Positions 2,001-59,025 of a stretch of 64,000 bases of DNA are shown here, in pieces. A program made the position numbers and the translations under genes. Position 1 is the stretch's first letter. Every line of letters begins with the position of its first letter. The notes beneath the pieces are model-generated. The model was given only the letters and a program-made list of their open reading frames with translations, was not told the origin of the DNA and ran no database searches. Source of the stretch: Flectonema sp. DT1601 (taxonomy: Eukaryota); contig OZ025791.1 in the NCBI GenBank assembly GCA_964019425.1, positions 744,001 to 808,000 of the forward strand. Direction: 5' to 3'.

Positions 2001-4737
2001 TTTAAAAAACAGCCAGCTCAACAAAGTTTTAAAAAACAGCCAGCTTCACACACAAAGTTTCAAAAAACAGCCTGCTCCACAAAGTTTCAAAAAACAGCCT
2101 GCTCCACAAAGTTTCAAAAACAGCCATCTCAACAAAGTTTCAAAAAACAGCCTGCTCTACAAAGTTTTAAAAAACAGCCTGCTCCACAAAGTTTTAAAAA
2201 ACAGCCAGCTCCACACATAAAGTTTCAAAAGACAACCAGCTCAACAAAGTTTTAAAAAACAGCCAGCTTCACACACAAAGTTTCAAAAAACAGCCTGCTC
2301 CACAAAGTTTTAAAAAACAGCCAGCTTCACACACAAAGTTTCAAAAAACAGCCTGCTCCACAAAGTTTCAAAAAACAGCCTGCTCCACAAAGTTTCAAAA
2401 ACAGCCATCTCAACAAAGTTTCAAAAAACAGCCTGCTCTACAAAGTTTTAAAAAACAGCCAGCTCCACACATAAAGTTTCAAAAGACAACCAGCTCTACA
2501 CACAAAGTTTCAAAAAACAGCCTGCTCCACAAAGTTTCGAAAAACATCCAGCTCCACACACAAAGTTTCAAAAAACAGCCATCTCAACAAAGTTTTAAAA
2601 AACGGCCAGCTCCACACACATTTTTTTAAAAAACAGCCAACTCCACACATAAAGTTTCAAAAAACAGCCAGATCCACATGCAAAGTTTCAAAAAACAGCC
2701 TGCTCCACAAAGTTTCGAAAAACATCCAGCTCCACACACAAAGTTTCAAAAAACAGCCATCTCAACAAAGTTTTAAAAAACGGCCAGCTCCACACACAAA
2801 GTTTCAAAAAACAGCCAGCTCCACACACATTTTTTTAAAAAACAGCCAACTCCACACATAAAGTTTCAAAAAACAGCCAGATCCACATGCAAAGTTTCAA
2901 AAAACAGCCTGCTCCACACACAAAGTTTCAAAAAACAGCCATCTCAACAAAGTTTCAAAAAACAGCCTGCTCTACAAAGTTTCAAAAAACAGCCTGCTCC
3001 ACAAAGTTTCGAAAAACAGCCAGCTCCACACACAAAGTTTCAAAAAACAGCCATCTCAACAAAGTTTCAAAAAACAGCCTGCTCTACAAAGTTTTAAAAA
3101 ACAGCCAGCTTCACACGCAAAGTTTCAAAAAACAGCCTGCTCCACAAAGTTTCAAAAAACAGCCATCTCAACAAAGTTTCAAAAAACAGCCTGCTCCACA
3201 CACAAAGTTTCAAAAAACAGCCTGCTCTACAAAGTTTTAAAAAACAGCCAGCTCAACAAAGTTTTAAAAAACAGCCAGCTTCACACACAAAGTTTCAAAA
3301 AACAGCCTGCTCCACAAAGTTTCAAAAAACAGCCTGCTCCACAAAGTTTCAAAAACAGCCATCTCAACAAAGTTTCAAAAAACAGCCTGCTCTACAAAGT
3401 TTTAAAAAACAGCCTGCTCCACAAAGTTTTAAAAAACAGCCAGCTCCACACATAAAGTTTCAAAAGACAACCAGCTCTACACACAAAGTTTCAAAAAACA
3501 GCCTGCTCCACAAAGTTTCGAAAAACATCCAGCTCCACACACAAAGTTTCAAAAAACAGCCATCTCAACAAAGTTTTAAAAAACGGCCAGCTCCACACAC
3601 AAAGTTTCAAAAAACAGCCAGCTCCACACACATTTTTTTAAAAAACAGCCAACTCCACACATAAAGTTTCAAAAAACAGCCAGATCCACATGCAAAGTTT
3701 CAAAAAACAGCCTGCTCCACACACAAAGTTTCAAAAAACAGCCATCTCAACAAAGTTTCAAAAAACAGCCTGCTCTACAAAGTTTCAAAAAACAGCCTGC
3801 TCCACAAAGTTTCGAAAAACAGCCAGCTCCACACACAAAGTTTCAAAAAACAGCCATCTCAACAAAGTTTCAAAAAACAGCCTGCTCTACAAAGTTTTAA
3901 AAAACAGCCAGCTTCACACGCAAAGTTTCAAAAAACAGCCTGCTCCACAAAGTTTCAAAAAACAGCCTGCTCCACAAAGTTTCAAAAAACAGCCATCTCA
4001 ACAAAGTTTCAAAAAACAGCCTGCTCCACACACAAAGTTTCAAAAAACAGCCTGCTCTACAAAGTTTTAAAAAACAGCCAGCTCTACAAAGTTTTAAAAA
4101 ACAGCCAGCTTCACACGCGAAGTTTCAAAAAACAGCCTGCTCCACAAAGTTTCAAAAAACAGCCTGCTCCACAAAGTTTCAAAAAACAGCCATCTCAACA
4201 AAGTTTTAAAAAACAGGCCAGCTCCACACACAAAGTTTCAAAAAACAGCCTGCTCTACAAAGTTTTAAAAAACAGCCAGCTTCACACGCAAAGTTTCAAA
4301 AAACAGGCAACTCAACAAAGTTTTAAAAAACAGCCAGCTCCACACATAAAGTTTCAAAAGACAGCCAGCTCTACACACAAAGTTTCAAAAAACAGCCTGC
4401 TCTACAAAGTTTTAAAAAACAGCCAGCTCTTGTTTCTTCTTGAGGTTCGTTTATTGTATACCTGTTGTTTTTGGCTTGTTGCACCGCTCTTACCTCGGTG
4501 CTTTTCAAAGTCTTGGGTTTCTGACCTCTTGAAGATGCAACATTACCCCGACGTCAGTAGTTTATGTTTTATTTCATTGATTCACTATAATTTTATTATC
4601 CCTTTGTTTATTCAGTCTTAATTACACAATATGGACGATGATGATTATTCCACACATAAAGTTTCAAAAAACAGCCTGCTCTACAAAGTTTTGAAAAACA
4701 GCCAGCTCCACATGCAAAGTTTCAAAAAAAAAAAAAC
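2001..4737. repeat. 27-31 bp minisatellite (caaagtttcaaaaaacagcctgctccac variants) with ~803 bp higher-order duplication and a ~220 bp unique interruption (4430-4648)
   Basis: Directly visible. Identical pseudo-ORFs begin at 2887 and 3690 (offset 803). Confidence 0.95.
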
Positions 4738-4748
4738 GAAGGGTTTTA

Positions 4749-5632
4749 AACTTGCACGATTACCTCTGCGCTCAGTGATTGGGGTGGATCAGAATACAGG
4801 GGGTTTAAATTATTTGACCAAGATGGCAATATCTGCCTCATCCCGGAGCCTACACACCGAGTTCATTGCATTGCCTCCTGGATTGCGAAGTACTTTGGCC
4901 TCAGTGACTTCCTCCGTTCAATAGCAACGCTGTGCTTCTTCATACGTGAGAATCGGTCGTTTGCTTACTCATTGAGAGGGGGGTTGATTTTACAGGTGCC
5001 TTGGCAGGGGCGTTGTCTTGGTTAGAGGACACACATTCAACTGCTTCATTGTGTTTTCTTGTTGAGGGTAACACAACAGAACATTTCAAAAAGATTAACC
5101 GGCAGAAAGTTCAGGACAGCCAGGCCAGAAGATCAGTCCACTGTCACCTCGATTATTGGGAAAAGATTTTTGCATTGCTCGATACCGAGCTTCCAGGTAG
5201 ATGGTTCTACATGCTGGAACCCTTGGGGGGAAAGGGCATTTTTCGTTGCTGTTATTGCGGTGACACAGTCTCCCCTCACCACGCCCGCCTGCTGGAAGTC
5301 AATAGGCAGGTCAACCACGCCCTCTCCCATGTGAACCACATTCAGGTCTCTAAGCTGAAGAGCGATGTCCCCGATGACCCCATGCTCACCAAGCCTGATG
5401 CCAGCATCATCCCGGTGGACGCACCATCCCTACCTAACCCCCCAACCAAGTCCCAGCGCAGGGCATTCATTTTCTCTGTTGTTGAATGCTTTGCGCTGGA
5501 GCTCCCCACAAAGCTAAAGTTGCGTGACCCCCTCTCCCTCCCGGTGCACCCCAAGCGAAAGCAGCGAAAGCAGCAGAAAATGCTGCTGCCAGGAAAGTTG
5601 CACAAGAAAAAACTGCTCAGCGAAAAGAGGAG
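4749..5632 (+). mobile_element. Internally deleted partial copy of the adjacent transposon
   Basis: 4749-4969 matches 6685-6905 and 4970-5632 matches 7229-7910, with a further ~20 bp deletion near 5545. The copy stops exactly at the left TIR of the full copy. Confidence 0.9.
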
Positions 5633-8618
5633 TGAGGCGATCGGCAGGGGTGGAGGTTTCACGAATTTTCACGATCCTTCACGGTTTGTCACGAGTTGTC
5701 ACTACCTATCACGAAAATTCACGAAAATTCACTGCCAAAAAGCATGGTGAAAAATCGTGAATTTTCGTGAATTTTGATATTGAGATTTGTGGTTTGGTAA
5801 AAAAAACTACTCAGGGGGGGCCTGAACTGCACTGCTTCGTAGTTGTCATCGGTGCTTGTTAATCCTATCGTTCTCTACAGTTTATTGTTAATACTACTTC
5901 TCTTTAATCCAGCTCTTGTTACAGTTTCATGTGGTTGCTGAACTATTCTAGCACAGGTGGGTTGATAGGCATGTGTGGTGATCGTTGAAGTGGTGGTGCT
6001 TGTTAATCCTATCGTTCTCTAAAGTTTATTGTGGTAAGGCATTCACATGGCTCTCGTAAGAGTAACAGTGCAACTTCGCGATTCCTTGCCAGCAGAGATC
6101 TTGCTGTATGTGACTAGCAGATCAAAGCTGTTAGATGTATTGGGTGGTATGGGACTAGAAGTTGAAGATGACTTGGAGGTTAGGGCTCGTGTTGCTGGCA
6201 CGGATAGCATGCTGATCTGGTGCGATGAGAAGATTGGTGAGGTTGACGGTGTATCGCAATACACTGTTGCTGGGACCCTGCATCACCGACCACAGCCACC
6301 AAGTACAGTTGTCCCGATCCTCTTGCAGCACATCGCCATGCACCGCATTCCGCAGTTTACCCGCCAGCTTCATGGTCTTGACTCCGTCAGTTATTGGGCT
6401 GCACGAAGAGAGATGATCCGGTGGTTGTATGTGCAGGATTGTGTGTTTCTCATTCGCAACCGGGAGAGTACCTTCTGCCTAGTAAGTGACGCAACATCTG
6501 TGACAGAAAACTCGTCAGCGCTACACATCACTGCTGCTACAGCTACGACTGCATGCTATAGTCTTGCATGCAGACTGACACAGAGCCACCAAGCTCAATC
6601 ATTCTGTGACACACTACGACGTGCGCTGCACCACTTCCAGCAGCTCGGAATCTTAATCACTGATCCGGCACCACCACCTCTGTCAACCTGCACGATTACC
6701 TCTGCGCTCAGTGATCGGGGTGGATCAGAATACAGGGGGTTTAAATTATTTGACCAAGATGGCAATATCTGCCTCATCCCGGAGCCTACACACCGAGTTC
6801 ATTGCATTGCCTCCTGGATTGCGAAGTACTTTGGCCTCAGTGACTTCCTCCGTTCAATAGTAACGCTGTGCTTCTTCATACGTGGGAATCGGTCGTTTGC
6901 TTACTGGCTTCGCAAGAAGCACCGCATCTCTTTTAGGGCGTGCCCATTTAAAGAGAAGGTTACGAATGGGCGCTTCTGAACCTTAGCATTTGCATGCCAC
7001 GGACGGCACTGGAGTTCACGACAGACGCAGCCGAGTTGCTTGACTAGGTGTCGGTCATTGTATCTCGGTAGTATGTGTTTCTCTTTTTTACATAGTAATG
7101 ATGAATCTGAACAAGCAGCTATTTTATTATCACTACTAAACATAAACCAGCATGAAGAAGAGGAATGTCGTCAGTATCACTGAAGTAGAGGTGACACGCA
7201 AACCGGACAATGAGACACAGATGTGTCTCATTGAGAGGGGAGTTGATTTTACAGGTGCCTTGGCAGGGGCGTTGTCTTGGTTAGAGGACACACGTTCAAC
7301 TGCTTCATTGTGTTTTCTTGTTGAGGGTAACACAACAGAACATTTCAAAAAGATTAACCGGCAGAAAGTTCAGGACAGCCAGGCCAGAAGATCAGGCCAC
7401 TGTCACCTCGATTATTGGGAAAAGATTTTTGCATTGCTCGATACCGAGCTTCCAGGTAGATGGTTCTACATGCTGGAACCCTTGGGGGGAAAGGGCATTT
7501 TTCGTTGCTGTTATTGCGGTGACACAGTCTCCCCTCACCACGCCCGCCTGCTGGAAGTCAATAGGCAGGTCAACCACGCCCTCTCCCATGTGAACCACAT
7601 TCAGGTCTCTAAGCTGAAGAGCGATGTCCCCGATGACCCCATGCTCACCAAGCCTGATGCCAGCATCATCCCGGTGGACGCACCATCCCTACCTAACCCC
7701 CCAACCAAGTCCCAGCGCAGGGCATTCATTTTCTCTGTTGTTGAATGCTTTGCGCTGGAGCTCCCCACAAAGCTAAAGTTGCGTGACCCCCTCTCCCTCC
7801 CGGTACCCCAGCAGTCCGCCACACTGACCCAAGCGAAAGCAGCGAAAGCAGCAGAAAATGCTGCTGCCAGGAAAGTTGCACAAGAAAAAACTGCTCAGCG
7901 AAAAGAGGAGGCAAGAAAGGAGAAGGCGGCTGCCAAGAAGGCGAAGGAGGAAGCAAGGGATGCAGCCAGGAAGAAGGCTGCAGAGGCGAAGAAAAAGAAG
8001 GCTGCAGAACCGGCACGCAAGAATCCCAAGGTTGAGCAATGACAACAGTTGCTCTTTGGATTTTTTATTTATTTAACCAAAAAAATTATCATCAGCTTGG
8101 AACCCAATGATTACACTCACTTGTTTCTACCCCAATGAATTACCTCTCATTGTCTCTCAAGCAATATCAATATGGGTTGTCAGGCTGTCTCCTGGCAGAG
8201 ATGGGAGGAGTAATGGAAAGACACCACAGAACAGAACAGTGTGAACGAGAATGAGCCCCCTCAGTGATTAAACCCACCGCACACGCGATGCGCCGGTCCA
8301 AAGTCCGGAACCTCACCACAAGCGATGGTCAGGAAGGGTGATGGGTCACTGGGCACAAGCGATGCCCATTTAGTTGTCAAAGTGACATGACGTATGGCAA
8401 ACTGAACAGGTTTGACATCGCACAGCACACCAGCACCAACGGTACCATCTGGATATCACTCACTTTTTTCACTAGAATTCACACATTTTCACACATTTTC
8501 ACAGGATTTCACTACCAAAAAGCAGCAAAAAATTAAGTGAAAAATCGTGAATTTTCGTGTAGCAAAGTGAAAAATCGTGAACACCTCCACCCTGCCGATC
8601 GCCCTGCCGATCGCCTCA
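5633..8618 (+). mobile_element. ~3 kb TIR DNA transposon (DDE type, hAT/P-like), probably non-functional
   Basis: Left end tgaggcgatcggcaggggtggaggtttcacgaattttcac (5633-5672) is the near reverse complement of the right end gtgaaaaatcgtgaacacctccaccctgccgatcg(ccctgccgatcg)cctca (8567-8618). 10-bp-period subterminal tcac/gtga repeats lie at 5659-5772 and 8456-8580. Confidence 0.85.
6047..8042 (+). pseudogene. Degenerate transposase: ORF 6047-6979 joined to ORF 7152-8042 by a frameshift, one in-frame TAG and a putative intron (~7072-7150)
   Basis: Motifs resemble a DDE RNase-H core: CLVSDATS, ALSDRGGSE, EPTHRVH (CxxH-position His), LCFFIRGN, NGRF. The downstream part has STASLCFLVE, a CxxC..H..H Zn-finger-like motif (CCYCG...HALSH) and a K/A-rich tail. 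Intron-like gtatgt...ctaaac...ccag. Lies between TIRs. Confidence 0.65.
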
Positions 8619-22718: not shown

Positions 22719-22790
22719 TGCGCTCACCGGGAGTCGAACCCGGGCCGCTCGCTTGGAAGGCGAGAATACTAACCGTTATACCATGAGCGC
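22719..22790 (-). tRNA. trnG-UCC: tRNA-Gly (anticodon TCC)
   Basis: Reverse complement GCGCTCA...CTCGCC-TTCCA-AGCGAG...GGTTCGACTCCC-GGTGAGCGCA forms a cloverleaf. It is followed by a poly-T Pol III terminator. Confidence 0.97.
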
Positions 22791-47352: not shown

Positions 47353-50303
47353 TCTGCAAAAAGTGATTGTTGTGTCAACGAGTCCCCGATGATAATAAAA
47401 ATGAACGTTACGAAATGGTGAGAATGTCTTGTTTTATACTTATACCAAATGAGCCTTAGGCAATCTCATGGAAGTTCACTTCTAGTTGATCGTATTGTAT
47501 AATTTACTTCTTCTTCTTCCTTTTTTCTTTTTTTCAGATGCAGTTACGCAGTCTGGGCTCTGTGTTCTATGTAGAAGAAGAAGAAGGGGAAAGAAAAAGC
47601 AAAAAAGTGTTGAAAAGGTCGGGTCGCTGTAGCGAGTGGTCGACATTTAAAAAAAACAAAAAAAAACAAAAAAAACAAAAACAAAAAACCGTTGAAGTGG
47701 GATTATTTTCCTTTACTTCTTCTTCTTTCCCTACTTTGATTTTTTTTTTAATATATTTTTGTTTTTAATTTATTTATTATTTTTTCGTTCCCCCCAGAAG
47801 AATGCTTGAGTACGTGGGAGGACTACCTCACAGGCTCTTTGCTCAGTAAGGCATTCCAGAACGACGTCCACATTCTTCTATCTTGCAATGAGTTGGTCGC
47901 TGGTCACGCCACATAAGATCTAAAACCTAGTCTCGCGTTTATTCGATTCTCACCGTAGCTCGGGTTTATTATCCATCTTTGGAAAAGGATGTATTCGAAC
48001 TCCCCAATCATATTTATTTAAAAATTGATAATCTGCGATAATTCCTCTATTGAAAAGGTGGCAATATCTACGCTAGGAAATCTTTGTTGTAAATAGAAGC
48101 GACTCAGTCGTCTTATTATTTGTTGTTTTTCCCTCTCAACCCAGCACCTGCAGTGGGTCCAGATGAGTGTTTATTTATTGGGGGGAAACAAAAAAAAAAA
48201 AAAAAAAAAAAAAAAGCAATAAAAAAAAGAACAAATACACAAGCAAACGAAAACAAGCTTTGGACATTATCTGAAAACGAAAGTGGGAAGTTTCTCTCTC
48301 TCTTCTTCTTTTTTTTTTTTTGTTTCCCCCTTTCGTTCTTCTATTAATGTTGAAAAGAAATTTTTTTGATAAAATAAAAAAAAAAAACTGAAAAAAAAAT
48401 AAAAATAAACTATTCATTGAAGTTAACAAATGCATGCATGCGTTCAAGTGAGCATACTATTTTTACTGCTGAGTGTGATTTTCTTTGTGTTGCCTACGAG
48501 GCAGATAAAATGAAGTATGAGCCTGACACTTGCATACATTTAATCTCAATACGTTGGTTTTATTTACAATAAGTATTGTCAATTGAAGAAGAGAGACACA
48601 CGTGGTGTTAGGAAAACACTTTCTTTGTTTTTTGAGAAAATTCCGAACAAATGTCAGCCTTTTCCTATCTTCTTCACGAGATGCTTATTACCTGTAGAAT
48701 TCTCGAAGACGTCGTTATTTTTTAATATTTTTAATTTTTAATTTTTTATTTTTCATCCTTTTTTTTTTTTTTTTGCTAAATTGTTGTTGCGGTATTGAAC
48801 AGACGGACTCCCCGTATGACTCCACAGATAAATAAATAATAAATAAGTGTGAGATAAACTGTCAAATACATGTTTTTTACGTTTTAACATTCTTGCAGTC
48901 ATGCGATACGTTTGTTTACAACCAGTACTACCTGAGTGAGCTGCCTGTTGGCTTGCTCACATAAAAAAGAAAAAAAAAAAAGAAAAAAGAAAAACGTTTT
49001 GTGTCTTCTTCGGGAGTTTTGTTCGTGCGTCACCTTCACGTTAAAATAATTTTTTTTCTTTTCTTTTCCAATTTTTTTCCCACACAATTGTTTGAAAAAT
49101 GAGAGAATAGAGGTAAAGAGGTATATGGATTACTTTAAAGGGCTAAGTTAAGCATCACCATAGTCACGGTACCCTTAACAGATTGTTGGATTGTTGTTTT
49201 ACAGTTGTACATTCAACATCCCTAACTCACACGATGGTTTAATAATTGCAGTTCCTACAAGCCTCTTATGATCCCTGTTTTCTACGATATAATTATTCAT
49301 TTTACTTTATCAAAAAAAAAAATAATAAAAACCTCACTCTCGTAGACAAACCATGGATTTAATACTAGATGTGTATTGCCTACATTCGATCCTTACTTTG
49401 TTTTTCCTTTGTTTTTCCCCTACGAAGGCAATCAAATCAGGGCGACCAAATTTAGCAATAAGGAACTAGAGAAGAAACGAGTTTTCAATCGGAAGATTAC
49501 AAAAGAAAGAAACCTAAAAAAAAAAAAACAAAAAAAAACAAAAAAAAGGAGCAGCTCCTGTTTCTGGTTATTAGAACGCCGGCAACGTTCTCTTTTCTGT
49601 ACCTTTTTTTCTTTCACAGTTTCGTTTTTTTTTTCTTCTCTTTTTCTTAAATTTTTTTTTTTTTTTTAAAAAAGTTTTATAAGGTTTGGTTCTCGAGCGC
49701 ACAAATTATAACAATAACGATAATTAATAAACAAAAAACAAAAAAAAAAACAAAAAAAATTGATCAAAAAATCTCATGCTTTGTTGTATTGAACGTCCCT
49801 GTGTAGGGACAGCACCGCACTGTAATTCTTTTCTAGCTCTAACAGTTTGCCAGAATGATGTCAAATTTTTGTGTATGAAACGAAGAATGATTAAAAAAAA
49901 AATTTTGATCTGTTTTTTGCGTTGAAAAGCAACGGAAAAAAAAAAAAAAAAAAAAAAGAGGGCTTTGCGTGAGTACTTTCTCCCTTTCTGCTGTTTACTT
50001 TAGGCCCTATTAAATATTAGTTGTTTTTTTTTTTTTTTTTTTTTGCGTTTTCCCTCCCCGGATGGTGATTTCTCCCTGAGGGAAGCGGTTCCTTATGTTG
50101 ATGACCAAGTTTTATTTTAGCACCTCATCCCACTTCTGTTGTTTTGGAATTTATTTTTAGGAGCGAGTTGAAAGTTTTTTTGTATCTGAAAACTGAATGA
50201 AGTCAGCAGATCCAACAGTTGAACGAAATAGTTAACTGCTGCAGGTTAAATTTACTACTTTTCTTAAACCAGCGACAACCACATGGAGGCAAACGACCGT
50301 AAT

Positions 50304-53178
50304 TTGATGAGTTACTTTGGCAAGCATTCTTCTGATAGTATAGTTTGTCACGCGCTCATCATAGACTTATCCCGAGTACATTCATATTTGATGGAAGTGA
50401 GTCTCTCGAATTAGTTTTACGTACGGAGAACAAGTAGTACAAAGCCTCAAGCTCGAAATCTGTAGTCGATGAGCCTTCTCTCTTCATTTGAAACTGTCTG
50501 AAGTTGGTTCCTCTTTATCATATTGATGAGTTACTTTGGCAAGCATTCTTCTGATAGTATAGTTTGTCACGCGCTCATCATAGACTTATCCAAGTACATT
50601 CATATTTGATGGAAGTGAGTCTCTCGAATTAGTTTTACGTACGGAGAACAAGTAGTACAAAGCCTCAAGCTCGAAATCTGTAGTCGATGAGCCTTCTCTC
50701 TTCATTTGAAACTGTCTGAAGTTGGTTCCTCTTTATCATATTGATGAGTTACTTTGGCAAGCATTCTTCTGATAGTATAGTTTGTCACGCGCTCATCATA
50801 GACTTATCCCGAGTACATTCATATTTGATGGAAGTGAGTCTCTCGAATTAGTTTTACGTACGGAGAACAAGTAGTACAAAGCCTCAAGCTCGAAATCTGT
50901 AGTCGATGAGCCTTCTCTCTTCATTTGAAACTGTCTGAAGTTGGTTCCTCTTTATCATATTGATGAGTTACTTTGGCAAGCATTCTTCTGATAGTATAGT
51001 TTGTCACGCGCTCATCATAGACTTATCCCGAGTACATTCATATTTGATGGAAGTGAGTCTCCATGACGATGCCTGAATCTGAGACTTTGGTGGAAATACT
51101 TTGACTGCTTTCTTCTTTCTAAGGACCTTCAAATACCTCCGTTGACTATCTTTTGTAGTCTCTGTGAGGGCCGCTTTGTGTTCGAGATTACCCATTTCTT
51201 GTTATCTGTTTTCTTGTAATAATGCGACTCTTGTGTTTAACATGAGCTACCTAATAAGTTATATTTGCACGCTGTTCTCGTTTTGTTTGAAAGTTCTTTT
51301 GATGAGTTACTTTGGCAAGCATTCTTCTGATAGTATAGTTTGTCACGCGCTCATCATAGACTTATCCAAGTACATTCATATTTGATGGAAGTGAGTCTCC
51401 ATGACGATGCCTGAATCTGAGACTTTGGTGGAAATACTTTGACTGCTTTCTTCTTTCTAAGGACCTTCAAATACCTCCGTTGACTATCTTTTGTAGTCTC
51501 TGTGAGGGCCGCTTTGTGTTCGAGATTACCCATTTCTTGTTATCTGTTTTCTTGTAATAATGCGACTCTTGTGTTTAACATGAGCTTCCTAATAAGTTAT
51601 ATTTGCACGCTGTTCTCGTTTTGTTTGAAAGTTCTTTTGATGAGTTACTTTGGCAAGCATTCTTCTGATAGTATAGTTTGTCACGCGCTCATCATAGACT
51701 TATCCAAGTACATTCATATTTGATGGAAGTGAGTCTCTCGAATTAGTTTTACGTACGGAGAACAAGTGCTCACAGTGGTACAAAGCCTCAAGCTCGAAAT
51801 CTGTAGTCGATGAGCCTTCTCTCTTCATTTGAAACTGTCTGAAGTTGGTTCCTCTTTATCATATTGATGAGTTACTTTAAGCATTCTTCTGATAGTATAG
51901 TTTGTCACGCGCTCATCATAGACTTATCCAAGTACATTCATATTTGATGGAAGTGAGTCTCCATGACGATGCCTGAATCTGAGACTTTGATGGAAATACT
52001 TTGACTGCTTTCTTCTTTCTAAGGACCTTCAAATACCTCCGTTGACTATCTTTTGTAGTCTCTGTGAGGGCCGCTTTGTGTTCGAGATTACCCATTTCTT
52101 GTTATCTGTTTTCTTATAATAATGCGACTCTGTGTTTAACATGAGCTAATAAGTTATATTTGCACGCTGTTCTCGTTTTGTTTGAAAGTTCTTTTGATGA
52201 GTTACTTTGGCAAGCATTCTTCTGATAGTATAGTTTGTCACGCGCTCATCATAGACTTATCCAAGTACATTCATATTTGATGGAAGTGAGTCTCCATGAC
52301 GATGCCTGAATCTGAGACTTTGGTGGAAATACTTTGACTGCTTTCTTCTTTCTAAGGACCTTCAAATACCTCCGTTGACTATCTTTTGTAGTCTCTGTGA
52401 GGGCCGCTTTGTGTTCGAGATTACCCATTTCTTGTTATCTGTTTTCTTGTAATAATGCGACTCTTGTGTTTAACATGAGCTTCCTAATAAGTTATATTTG
52501 CACGCTGTTCTCGTTTTGTTTGAAAGTTCTTTTGATGAGTTACTTTGGCAAGCATTCTTCTGATAGTATAGTTTGTCACGCGCTCATCATAGACTTATCC
52601 AAGTACATTCATATTTGATGGAAGTGAGTCTCCATGACGATGCCTGAATCTGAGACTTTGATGGAAATACTTTGACTGCTTTCTTCTTTCTAAGGACCTT
52701 CAAATACCTCCGTTGACTATCTTTTGTAGTCTCTGTGAGGGCCGCTTTGTGTTCGAGATTACCCATTTCTTGTTATCTGTTTTCTTATAATAATGCGACT
52801 CTGTGTTTAACATGAGCTAATAAGTTATATTTGCACGCTGTTCTCGTTTTGTTTGAAAGTTCTTTTGATGAGTTACTTTGGCAAGCATTCTTCTGATAGT
52901 ATAGTTTGTCACGCGCTCATCATAGACTTATCCCGAGTACATTCATATTTGATGGAAGTGAGTCTCTCGAATTAGTTTTACGTACGGAGAACAAGTAGTA
53001 CAAAGCCTCAAGCTCGAAATCTGTAGTCGATGAGCCTTCTCTCTTCATTTGAAACTGTCTGAAGTTGGTTCCTCTTTATCATATTGATGAGTTACTTTGG
53101 CAAGCATTCTTCTGATAGTATAGTTTGTCACGCGCTCATCATAGACTTATCCAAGTACATTCATATTTGATTGAAGTG
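50304..53178 (+). repeat. Composite array: 11 copies of a ~100-nt constant unit R separated by spacer X (~118 nt) or Y (~235 nt)
   Basis: R (tgatgagttactttggc...gaagtgagtctc) starts at 50305, 50524, 50742, 50961, 51300, 51638, 51865, 52195, 52533, 52866, 53085. Spacer order is X,X,X,Y,Y,X,Y,Y,Y,X. Confidence 0.95.
50305..50368 (+). ncRNA. Candidate single-hairpin H/ACA-like (AGA-box) guide RNA, first of 11 copies
   Basis: Lower stem tgatgagt/gctcatca, internal loop, upper stem tggcaagc/gtttgtca, then t-AGA-ctt. Size and AGA ending match euglenozoan H/ACA RNAs. Confidence 0.55.
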
Positions 53179-53217
53179 CTTTCTTCTTTGACAAGGTCAC
53201 GGTGATAGACAGGAGGA

Positions 53218-53286
53218 GGTCGGAGGGGCCGTTTCTCTTGGGATGACTTTCCTAATCAGGTTGACGTGGGCGGTTCGATCAGACAA
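53218..53286 (+). ncRNA. Candidate single-hairpin AGA-box RNA (unique copy) after the array
   Basis: ggtcgga/ttcgatc stem closes a 63-nt hairpin immediately followed by AGA. GC-rich island in an AT-rich context. Confidence 0.35.
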
Positions 53287-53428: not shown

Positions 53429-54601
53429 ATGGCAACGTTCAGACTCAACCCGAACGCTCGTCCATTTGAGGTAAAGCACTACACAGGTGAGGTACCATGG
53501 ATTGTAGATGAATTACAAGTTGACTTATCGTTATCAGAGGAGATGATATTATTTAGTGAGTTTATTGGTCTATCAACCACAGAAAGATTATCGAGAGACA
53601 AAGCAATAGCGATGATTGAAAAGTCTATTGAGGAAACTCTTCCTAATGAAAGTAAGTTAACTCTGTACGGTTCTTATGCTTCAAACACGTCAGTAAGAAC
53701 TTCATTTATTGATGTTATGATTGAATGCTATAGTGATGATGGTGCTCATGAGTATCAACAACAGCAGTTTTTAGAATCACTTTCTAGGTATTCAGTTATT
53801 GAATCCACAGTTCAATCGGACGATGAACTCTTCACTCAAATCAAGTTCAAGTCCGTCACAGTCAATATTTCCCTCCGACGAGACATATCATCAGCAATGC
53901 AAGTCATTCGATCAAATCAAATTACCAGCAGTTATTTAAAAGCCTGTCCTGCTGTTAGACATGTTCAAGCTGTTGTCCGTCATGTGCTAACTCAAGCTTG
54001 TTCATCAAGCCTTGATGTTTTAAAGGGAGGATTATCCCCAACTGCTTTATTAACAATGGTTATCCATATTTATAATGTTTATAAAATTGAGGATCCTGGT
54101 GAGCTTTTAACGACATTTTTACACTACTTTTCATCACCGAAGTTTGACTATGTTCGTAGCAGTGTTGCGATTGCTGGATGTAAACCAAAATTAACATCGG
54201 ATCAGATTTTTGTTGAAGATCCTGTTAATTTTGATAACAACCTCGCATCTGAATGTATAATGCTTCGAGAAATCAAAGCTCATTTTGCAAGCATGTGTAT
54301 TGCTCTTCGTCAACATAGAGGAACCCATACTAAGTTGTCAACCATTATAAGCCATAGGCCACTGTGGTCTCGCAGGGCTGAGTTGGCGGATATAAAGGCG
54401 CAGGAAGAACAGATGAGGTCTCAAAAATATCAGTTTGAGTGGTCTCTTCCTGTTCCTGAGGATTTGAATAATTTTAGTTTTAATAGCATTTTGAATTCAT
54501 CAACACCAAGAACTAGGACTGATTCTCATACCAGGTCCAGCTCTCCTTGGTCTGATACCGACATGTTAGCATCCATTGTGTTGACAGCTACAGAATTGTG
54601 A
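53429..54601 (+). CDS. Trf4/PAPD5-like non-canonical poly(A) polymerase homolog with N-terminal PAM2 motif; catalytic Asp residues degenerate
   Basis: RLNPNARPF (PAM2), LYGSYASNTSVRTSFIDV, GGLSPTALLTMV, GELLTTFLHYF, IFVEDPVNFDNNLA (PAP-associated domain). Confidence 0.88.
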   Translation: MATFRLNPNARPFEVKHYTGEVPWIVDELQVDLSLSEEMILFSEFIGLSTTERLSRDKAIAMIEKSIEETLPNESKLTLYGSYASNTSVRTSFIDVMIECYSDDGAHEYQQQQFLESLSRYSVIESTVQSDDELFTQIKFKSVTVNISLRRDISSAMQVIRSNQITSSYLKACPAVRHVQAVVRHVLTQACSSSLDVLKGGLSPTALLTMVIHIYNVYKIEDPGELLTTFLHYFSSPKFDYVRSSVAIAGCKPKLTSDQIFVEDPVNFDNNLASECIMLREIKAHFASMCIALRQHRGTHTKLSTIISHRPLWSRRAELADIKAQEEQMRSQKYQFEWSLPVPEDLNNFSFNSILNSSTPRTRTDSHTRSSSPWSDTDMLASIVLTATEL

Positions 54602-58892: not shown

Positions 58893-59025
58893 AAAACCAA
58901 CCTGTCTCTCGACGGTCTAAACCCAGCTCACGTTCCCTGTTAGTGGGTGAACAATCCAACCCTTAGACAATTCTACTTGTCTAAGTTAGGAAGAGCCGAC
59001 ATCTTGGCTGCCACAGGCCAGTTAT
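58893..59025 (-). pseudogene. Inserted LSU rRNA fragment (domain V / peptidyl-transferase region) with an internal deletion
   Basis: Reverse complement reads ATAACTGGCCTGTGGCAGCCAA|GATGTCGGCTCTTCCTAAC...GGATTGTTCACCCAC...GGGAACGTGAGCTGGGTTTAGACCGTCG.GAGACAGGTTGGTTTT. Confidence 0.93.

Follow-up and report, generated by a model that had tools for sequence, protein, structure and literature searches.

Pseudouridylation guides of trypanosomatids are single hairpins of 57-91 nt with an AGA box 3 nt from the end and 13-16 nt from the pocket; in the sections of PMC2613932 on which we draw, the consensus consists of a stem I of 5-8 bp, 1-3 nt before the AGA, a pocket of 5-11 nt and a stem II of 3-7 bp, with A or C before stem I as the usual, not strict, rule and U as a rarity. 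The same sections describe snoRNA clusters that are repeated, partial repeats included, and clusters made up of H/ACA RNAs only. In T. brucei, the members of cluster TB8Cs2 are present 1, 5, 3 and 3 times, if the column concerned in table S-4 of PMC3273796 is read as copy number. Single-hairpin pseudouridylation guides with clustered genes are also attributed to Euglena gracilis (as cited in PMC2613932 and PMC2784804), and in yeast 18S rRNA, Psi766 is guided by snR161 and Psi1181 by snR85 according to the part of PMC5699541 used here. For diplonemids, no modification-guide snoRNA was found in the titles and abstracts of the literature searched, and the term 'snoRNA' is absent from the searched portions of the D. 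papillatum genome paper (PMC10161547) and its seven supplements.

We analysed a 64-kb window of DNA from Flectonema sp. DT1601 in which 11 copies of a repeat, R, bracket ten spacers, five of type X and five of type Y, in the order XXXYYXYYYX (Table 1). Judging from hairpin anatomy and predicted target pairing, we consider it quite probable that this array, built of R-X and R-Y units in tandem, encodes two single-hairpin AGA-box guides, the 11-copy R guide and the 5-copy Y guide, both of them candidates for pseudouridylation of a conserved uridine in SSU rRNA. The array is likely of a known kind, in which single-hairpin AGA guides for pseudouridylation are clustered as in other euglenozoans. 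An earlier note on this DNA had also read it as a guide-RNA array; that reading stands as to kind, with the single-hairpin AGA anatomy and the tandem cluster, and gives way as to target, which is predicted in SSU and not in LSU rRNA.

The host is likely a diplonemid. An oxidoreductase encoded in the window gave three matches at E<=1e-40 among 2348 candidates, which are the protein itself, one from Flectonema neradi (75%) and one from Acrasis (31%), and Flectonema is a diplonemid genus. Of the 23 ORFs of at least 120 aa, 21 lie on the + strand and the two on the - strand lie within + ORFs, a strand bias like that of the gene arrays of D. papillatum, which are unidirectional and probably polycistronic in the part of PMC10161547 consulted. 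A single tRNA-Gly(TCC) at 22719-22790 (-) lies on the strand opposite to the protein genes. The ORFs at 5211-5750 and 7152-8042 have a long identical protein stretch, the first diverging at its end as if frameshifted; Pfam gave no match for 7152-8042 nor for the ORF at 6047-6979 between the two, and the pair is possibly a duplicated mobile-element remnant. Directly after the cluster and on the strand of the guides follows an ORF resembling a non-canonical poly(A) polymerase (Table 1), with an N-terminal motif similar to PAM2; it is given as context only, and its presence is probably incidental.

Table 1. Features of the R/X/Y array and its 3' neighbour, in positions of the 64-kb window
Feature	Position	Strand	Remarks
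Whole array	50304..53178	+	11 R, 5 X, 5 Y
R starts	50304, 50523, 50741, 50960, 51299, 51637, 51864, 52194, 52532, 52865, 53084		
R guide, copy 1	50304..50368	+	predicted single-hairpin AGA guide; AGA at 50363
R trailer	50369..50405	+	holds the two-haplotype site and an ACA
X spacer, copy 1	50406..50522	+	
Other X copies	50624-50740, 50843-50959, 51738-51863, 52967-53083		51738-51863 with insertion
Y spacer, unit 5	51400..51636	+	
Other Y copies	51062-51298, 51962-52193, 52295-52531, 52633-52864		
Y guide	51460..51528	+	predicted single-hairpin AGA guide; AGA at 51523
Other Y guide copies	51122-51190, 52022-52090, 52355-52423, 52693-52761		sequence identical in all five
Nested long guide, candidate	50504..50601	+	R hairpin as upper stem; at 5/5 X-R junctions
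Parts of the nested candidate	50504-50507, 50513-50522, 50582-50585, 50596		lower stem, outer pocket strand, second strand, ACA, in this order
Downstream ORF	53429..54601	+	weak PF22600 (poly(A) polymerase palm domain), E 1.6e-4, below cutoff

The layout as first described, with R at both ends, agrees with the R starts and with the R-to-R periods of 219, 218, 219, 339, 338, 227, 330, 338, 333 and 219 nt. R measures 101-102 nt, apart from copy 7 with 98 nt, and the match of copy 11 ends at 53178. X is 117 nt long (126 in unit 6) and Y 232-237 nt, and local alignment against shuffles found X, Y and R mutually unrelated (p 0.10-0.97), which upholds the description of two unrelated spacers with Y about twice the length of X. 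No further copy of R, X or Y occurs within the window (best outside match, E=0.012). A search of a genome-contig collection with an R motif gave no match, nor did a search of genome-contig and viral-contig collections with a diplonemid-like SSU motif. The last R is followed by a pyrimidine tract of 13 nt (53177-53189) that is identical to Y offset 45-57, directly before the Y guide (E=0.54), and is possibly a breakpoint or a processing signal. The 3' flank was also considered as a decayed Y and dropped as such (p=0.12).

Target rRNA was collected with an LSU fragment of the window as bait, which led to 25 rDNA loci; the best full-length matches were L020, L006 and L023 (108/111 nt). L020, with complete SSU, 5.8S and LSU, served as proxy rDNA from a relative, and the targets below are positions in this proxy, not in the host's own rRNA. 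The fragment itself (58893-59025, -) is isolated and intergenic, has no other rDNA beside it, and is built of abutting pieces of 23 and 111 nt that are 96-97% identical to L020 6170-6192 and 6224-6334, with a 31-nt internal deletion between them; it is likely a pseudogenic insertion.

The guide element is the first 65 nt of every R. On the + strand, the first 65-66 nt form a bulged hairpin followed by AGA (z -2.83, equalled by 1 of 200 shuffles), whereas z is -0.18 on the - strand, the G-U pairs being present on + only; the claim of the earlier note that about the first 64 nt fold in this way is thus borne out. Stem I has 8 bp, the pocket is 7x5 and stem II has 6 bp, with 1 nt separating stem I from the AGA and 14 nt between the AGA and the pocket. 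Compared with the trypanosomatid AGA-guide consensus, length, stem I, spacing, pocket and distance all fall within the range, and the nucleotide before stem I is U in all copies, not the usual A or C. The pocket strands CTTTG and CACGC form 5+5 Watson-Crick pairs, with no mismatch, around U1628 of the L020 SSU, so that the bipartite complementarity to rRNA which the earlier note had suggested looking for is present. In a strict Watson-Crick test over three registers, the ten pairs were equalled in 3 of 400 shuffled rRNAs (9 of 400 with one gap allowed). Copy 7 (51864) lacks 3 nt at the border of pocket and stem II, and its guide is probably dead, a pseudogene.

U1628 falls in Rfam SSU column 774, seven columns past a conserved U at 767. 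We presume that it is about Psi766 in yeast numbering, an anchoring that combines yeast sequence context with the Rfam columns, and SSU U1628, equivalent to about yeast Psi766, is the predicted target of the R guide. The spacing of columns 767 and 774 and the offset of 8 fit yeast Psi759 and Psi766 as listed in the part of PMC5699541 consulted. The LSU motif first proposed as target, from a pocket 15 nt from the AGA, is absent from all 25 rDNA loci, and the homologous LSU stretch differs in all five loci of the closest group; the register that pairs with a target lies at 14 nt, and the best site for R is U1628 of the SSU. A further site, L020 LSU 3408, was rejected: the pairing depends on G-U pairs and includes a mismatch, and L006, which alone among the other loci of the group covers this site, does not conserve it.

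Y was taken at first, like X, for an interchangeable cassette, but it carries a second AGA guide that had been overlooked. Its stem I has 4 perfect base pairs, against 5-8 bp in the trypanosomatid consensus, and a fifth pair past a bulge; the pocket is 9x10 and the AGA lies 15 nt from it. The pocket forms 6+5 Watson-Crick pairs around U2121 of the L020 SSU, with one A.A mismatch adjoining the pocket, and the score of 10 in the strict test (three registers) was equalled in 6 of 400 shuffles. The fold of the Y hairpin is unremarkable (z -1.19, 28 of 200 shuffles as good). U2121 falls in Rfam SSU column 1190, ten before the hypermodified U at column 1200, which by sequence context is presumably yeast 1191; hence, the predicted target of the Y guide corresponds to yeast Psi1181. 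X holds no significant guide of its own. AGA hairpins straddling the tail of R and the head of X or Y had no good rRNA target (for X, 26 of 60 shuffles were as good), and a scan for contiguous antisense matches of at least 11 nt to rRNA gave many matches, on the + and the - strand alike, none of them associated with a box.

How much can such pairing tell by itself? When 78 registers were generously enumerated over the array, the R and Y sites were the top two on the real rRNA, but a score of 10 was reached in 57 of 150 shuffles, and at two boxes in 10 of 150. Pairing alone is therefore weak, since this score is common in shuffles, and the case leans on the known Psi sites: Rfam columns 774 and 1190 translate to yeast 766 and 1181, both of them listed as Psi sites. 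The L020 rRNAs hold 1354 U in total, and yeast rRNA has about 45 Psi sites. The frequency of chance scores also speaks for a neutral satellite or segmental repeat in which hairpins and rRNA matches arose fortuitously. No Rfam family covers the array at gathering score, matches up to E 10 being at chance level, and the window has other two-unit tandem repeats, as would suit a satellite. We nevertheless hold this explanation to be improbable, because the two best registers both fall on columns of known yeast Psi sites, the R fold is specific to the + strand with its G-U pairs, and both AGA distances are canonical. Sequence variants tend to fall outside the guides, with one of about eight events in them against a share of 29% of the sequence, but the difference is not significant.

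Two repeats lie at the start of the window. Positions 1-1597 hold an AT-rich tandem repeat whose units alternate between two types (~119 and ~142 nt) with a common head, that is, a second array with a shared block and two variants, and 2004-4429 is a minisatellite in which a unit of 27 nt is present ~85 times, with pronounced strand skew.

If the array is a guide cluster, it would be transcribed by read-through on the + strand inside a polycistronic unit and trimmed to RNAs of 65-70 nt. H/ACA guides assemble with Cbf5, Nop10, Nhp2 and Gar1, and the R and Y guides would do the same; the R RNA would then direct pseudouridylation at the equivalent of SSU U1628 and the Y RNA at the equivalent of U2121.

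The functional RNAs might instead be box C/D methylation guides, with a TGATGA C box opening R and X parsed as C-D'-C'-D with two antisense elements. In RNAs of this class, an antisense stretch of 10-21 nt directly precedes D or D'. TGATGA is found in 11 of 11 R copies and ATGACGA, a form also used in T. brucei C/D RNAs (PMC3273796, in the part seen), at the start of all five Y copies, and the tails of both X and Y end antisense to rRNA directly before the TTGA of R. These guide matches are, however, common in shuffles (X tail 35, Y tail 20 and X D' 11 of 100), and the best one, at 50372 (3 of 100), has its box in only 4 of 11 R copies and a target that is unconserved in the four other loci of the closest group. 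Furthermore, the 8-bp stem buries the C box of R, and a TTGA overlapping the R guide would have to serve as the terminal D box. All told, we hold this proposal to be quite unlikely. A weak C/D parse of X has C-like 50466, D'-like 50488 and D-like 50523 boxes, and a C/D RNA in X could be compatible with AGA guides in the array. A possible box C/D RNA of ~95 nt (50095-50192, +) lies upstream of the array, bounded by TGATGA at 50099 and CTGA at 50186; its guide match does not exceed chance (78 of 100 shuffles).

A still smaller chance goes to an SLA1-like RNA that guides pseudouridylation of the spliced leader. X has AGTACA and, 48 nt on, GAAACTGT, which are jointly antisense to the conserved leader core (PMC7859406, in the part consulted), and T. 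brucei SLA1 has GAAACTG 14 nt before its AGA in the portion of PMC3273796 seen. In X, by contrast, the triplet 14 nt past GAAACTG is TTG and not AGA, there is no lower stem, and the spacer folds worse than shuffles (z +1.24). A canonical double-hairpin H/ACA RNA was also considered and rejected: R can adopt a two-hairpin fold, yet its hinge lacks an ANANNA and the second hairpin is not followed by an ACA.

Beyond the guides themselves, the order of the units asks for an explanation. R occurs in two haplotypes, CCCGA in copies 1, 3, 4 and 10 and CCAA in the other seven, which differ solely past the predicted end of the guide, and Y likewise has two, with units 7 and 9 carrying type b. Every pairing of R haplotype with spacer type, four in all, occurs on both sides of R. 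Because each R haplotype both precedes and succeeds X as well as Y, exchange within R is required, and the R trailer is likely the crossover zone. Unequal crossover or gene conversion among misaligned R copies would have amplified and shuffled X and Y; a misaligned R-R crossover can give any X/Y order, always with R at both ends. Shuffled by such exchange, the X/Y order would carry no information, and the ratio R:X:Y of 11:5:5 needs no dosage mechanism, since R is the homology block common to all units. The irregular order likely results from ordinary unequal recombination, with nothing CRISPR-like about it. The double dosage of R pointed out earlier would come down to R being in every unit, and members of T. 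brucei clusters are also unequal in number.

The earlier note had further pointed to a CRISPR-like layout, and R at both ends with a non-periodic order would indeed suit a programmed cassette system with a functional role for spacer order or dosage. CRISPR arrays have short repeats and mostly unique spacers of similar length. Here the repeat has 102 nt and the spacers 117 and 237 nt, no more than two spacer sequences occur, five times each, and the host is eukaryotic. In addition, no Cas Pfam family was seen in the 12 of 23 ORFs scanned, both nearest long ORFs among them, and the recombinant haplotypes account for the order; the likeness is superficial, and we give such a system virtually no credence. 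It could also be asked whether a simpler repeat was mis-ordered in assembly. No reads span the array, and the contigs of run X1 do not cover X, R or Y (one copy of each checked). Yet the variants recur as linked haplotypes (the two R types in 4 and 7 copies, and Y type b shared by units 7 and 9) and not as scattered errors, and the contig measures 761 kb; an artefact, which we judge very improbable, would alter the order and not the guides.

The X-R junctions offer a second, more tentative reading, in which they encode a two-storey guide of ~98 nt with the R hairpin nested inside it, a candidate for SSU U1648; on the sequence features below we consider it possible, but doubtful. The lower stem has 4 bp and survives in either R haplotype, with U-A replaced by U-G in one pair. 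The outer pocket is formed by the final 10 nt of X together with AGAC, that is, the inner AGA box plus C, with the ACA 14 or 15 nt away. U1648 lies 20 nt from R's own target U1628, and 2 of 14 pocket positions are mismatched around it in L020. Run X1 contains 9% of the region's sampled words and is presumably mostly bacterial, as judged by motifs in its rRNA loose ends. One 18S contig of this run, of low depth (4.7) and only assumed to come from the host, aligned to L020 1577-1707 with nine differences, of which four are listed (1642, 1643, 1645 and 1650), none of these in R's target. The changes at 1645 and 1650 mend both mismatches and give 14/14 pairs (10+4, counted by hand), which counts only if this low-depth contig is the host's. 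A score of 14 was reached by none of 150 shuffles across the 78 registers (maximum 13).

Several points weigh against the nested guide. The match emerged after several target sets had been tried, U-rich spacers readily match purine-rich rRNA, the free fold at the X-R junction favours other pairings by ~5 kcal/mol, and the Y-R junctions gave no matching rRNA target. Its box is ACA, compared with AGA in trypanosomatid guides, and its 5' pocket strand has 15 nt, compared with 5-11 nt in their consensus, although one known trypanosomatid guide has a strand of 15 nt (PMC2613932, in the sections used). No nested two-pocket architecture was found in the literature searched. The closest known parallel is provided by dual-target guides of T. 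brucei such as TB11Cs6H1, a single hairpin RNA with two targets (PMC6698659, in the part consulted); there one pocket and one box serve both, whereas the nested candidate would stack two pockets, each with its own box, and its targets would be neighbours in the same rRNA. Should this guide exist, a single molecule could clamp the two adjacent sites, or trimming could yield either a long or a short guide; recombination within R would then determine the proportion of nested (X-R) and plain (Y-R) forms, and the locus would illustrate how an existing guide can give rise to a new one around itself.

Returning to the two single-hairpin guides, the locus resembles the trypanosomatid clusters TB8Cs2, TB11Cs5 and TB6Cs1 in its clustered and repeated predicted single-hairpin AGA guides and in the unequal numbers of its members. 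It differs from them in its likely diplonemid host, in having two unit types with one common guide in irregular order, and in the lack of a confident C/D member. Yeast snR161 and snR85 are canonical double-hairpin H/ACA RNAs, whereas the R and Y guides are single hairpins with AGA; the latter are predicted for the homologous uridines and would be functional counterparts, with no claim of orthology. The likeness to the Euglena gracilis guides lies in the single hairpin and the clustering, as described in the citing papers. Compared by eye with part of the T. brucei guide list (PMC3273796), the guides had no evident sequence ortholog there.

The R and Y guides would be concrete candidates for modification-guide snoRNAs in diplonemids and would bring the single-hairpin AGA design, known from kinetoplastids and euglenids, to the third branch of the Euglenozoa. 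The array yields two exact Psi predictions, and it would record the turnover of a snoRNA cluster by unequal crossover in unusual detail. AGA hairpins with weak rRNA matches also occur in its flanks, at 49790-49855, 50141-50211 and 53218-53284 (all +), where 3, 16 and 18 of 60 shuffles, respectively, were as good; they are possible single-copy members of the cluster, and the last one has partial complementarity to the conserved 3' region of the SSU, close to L020 2638.
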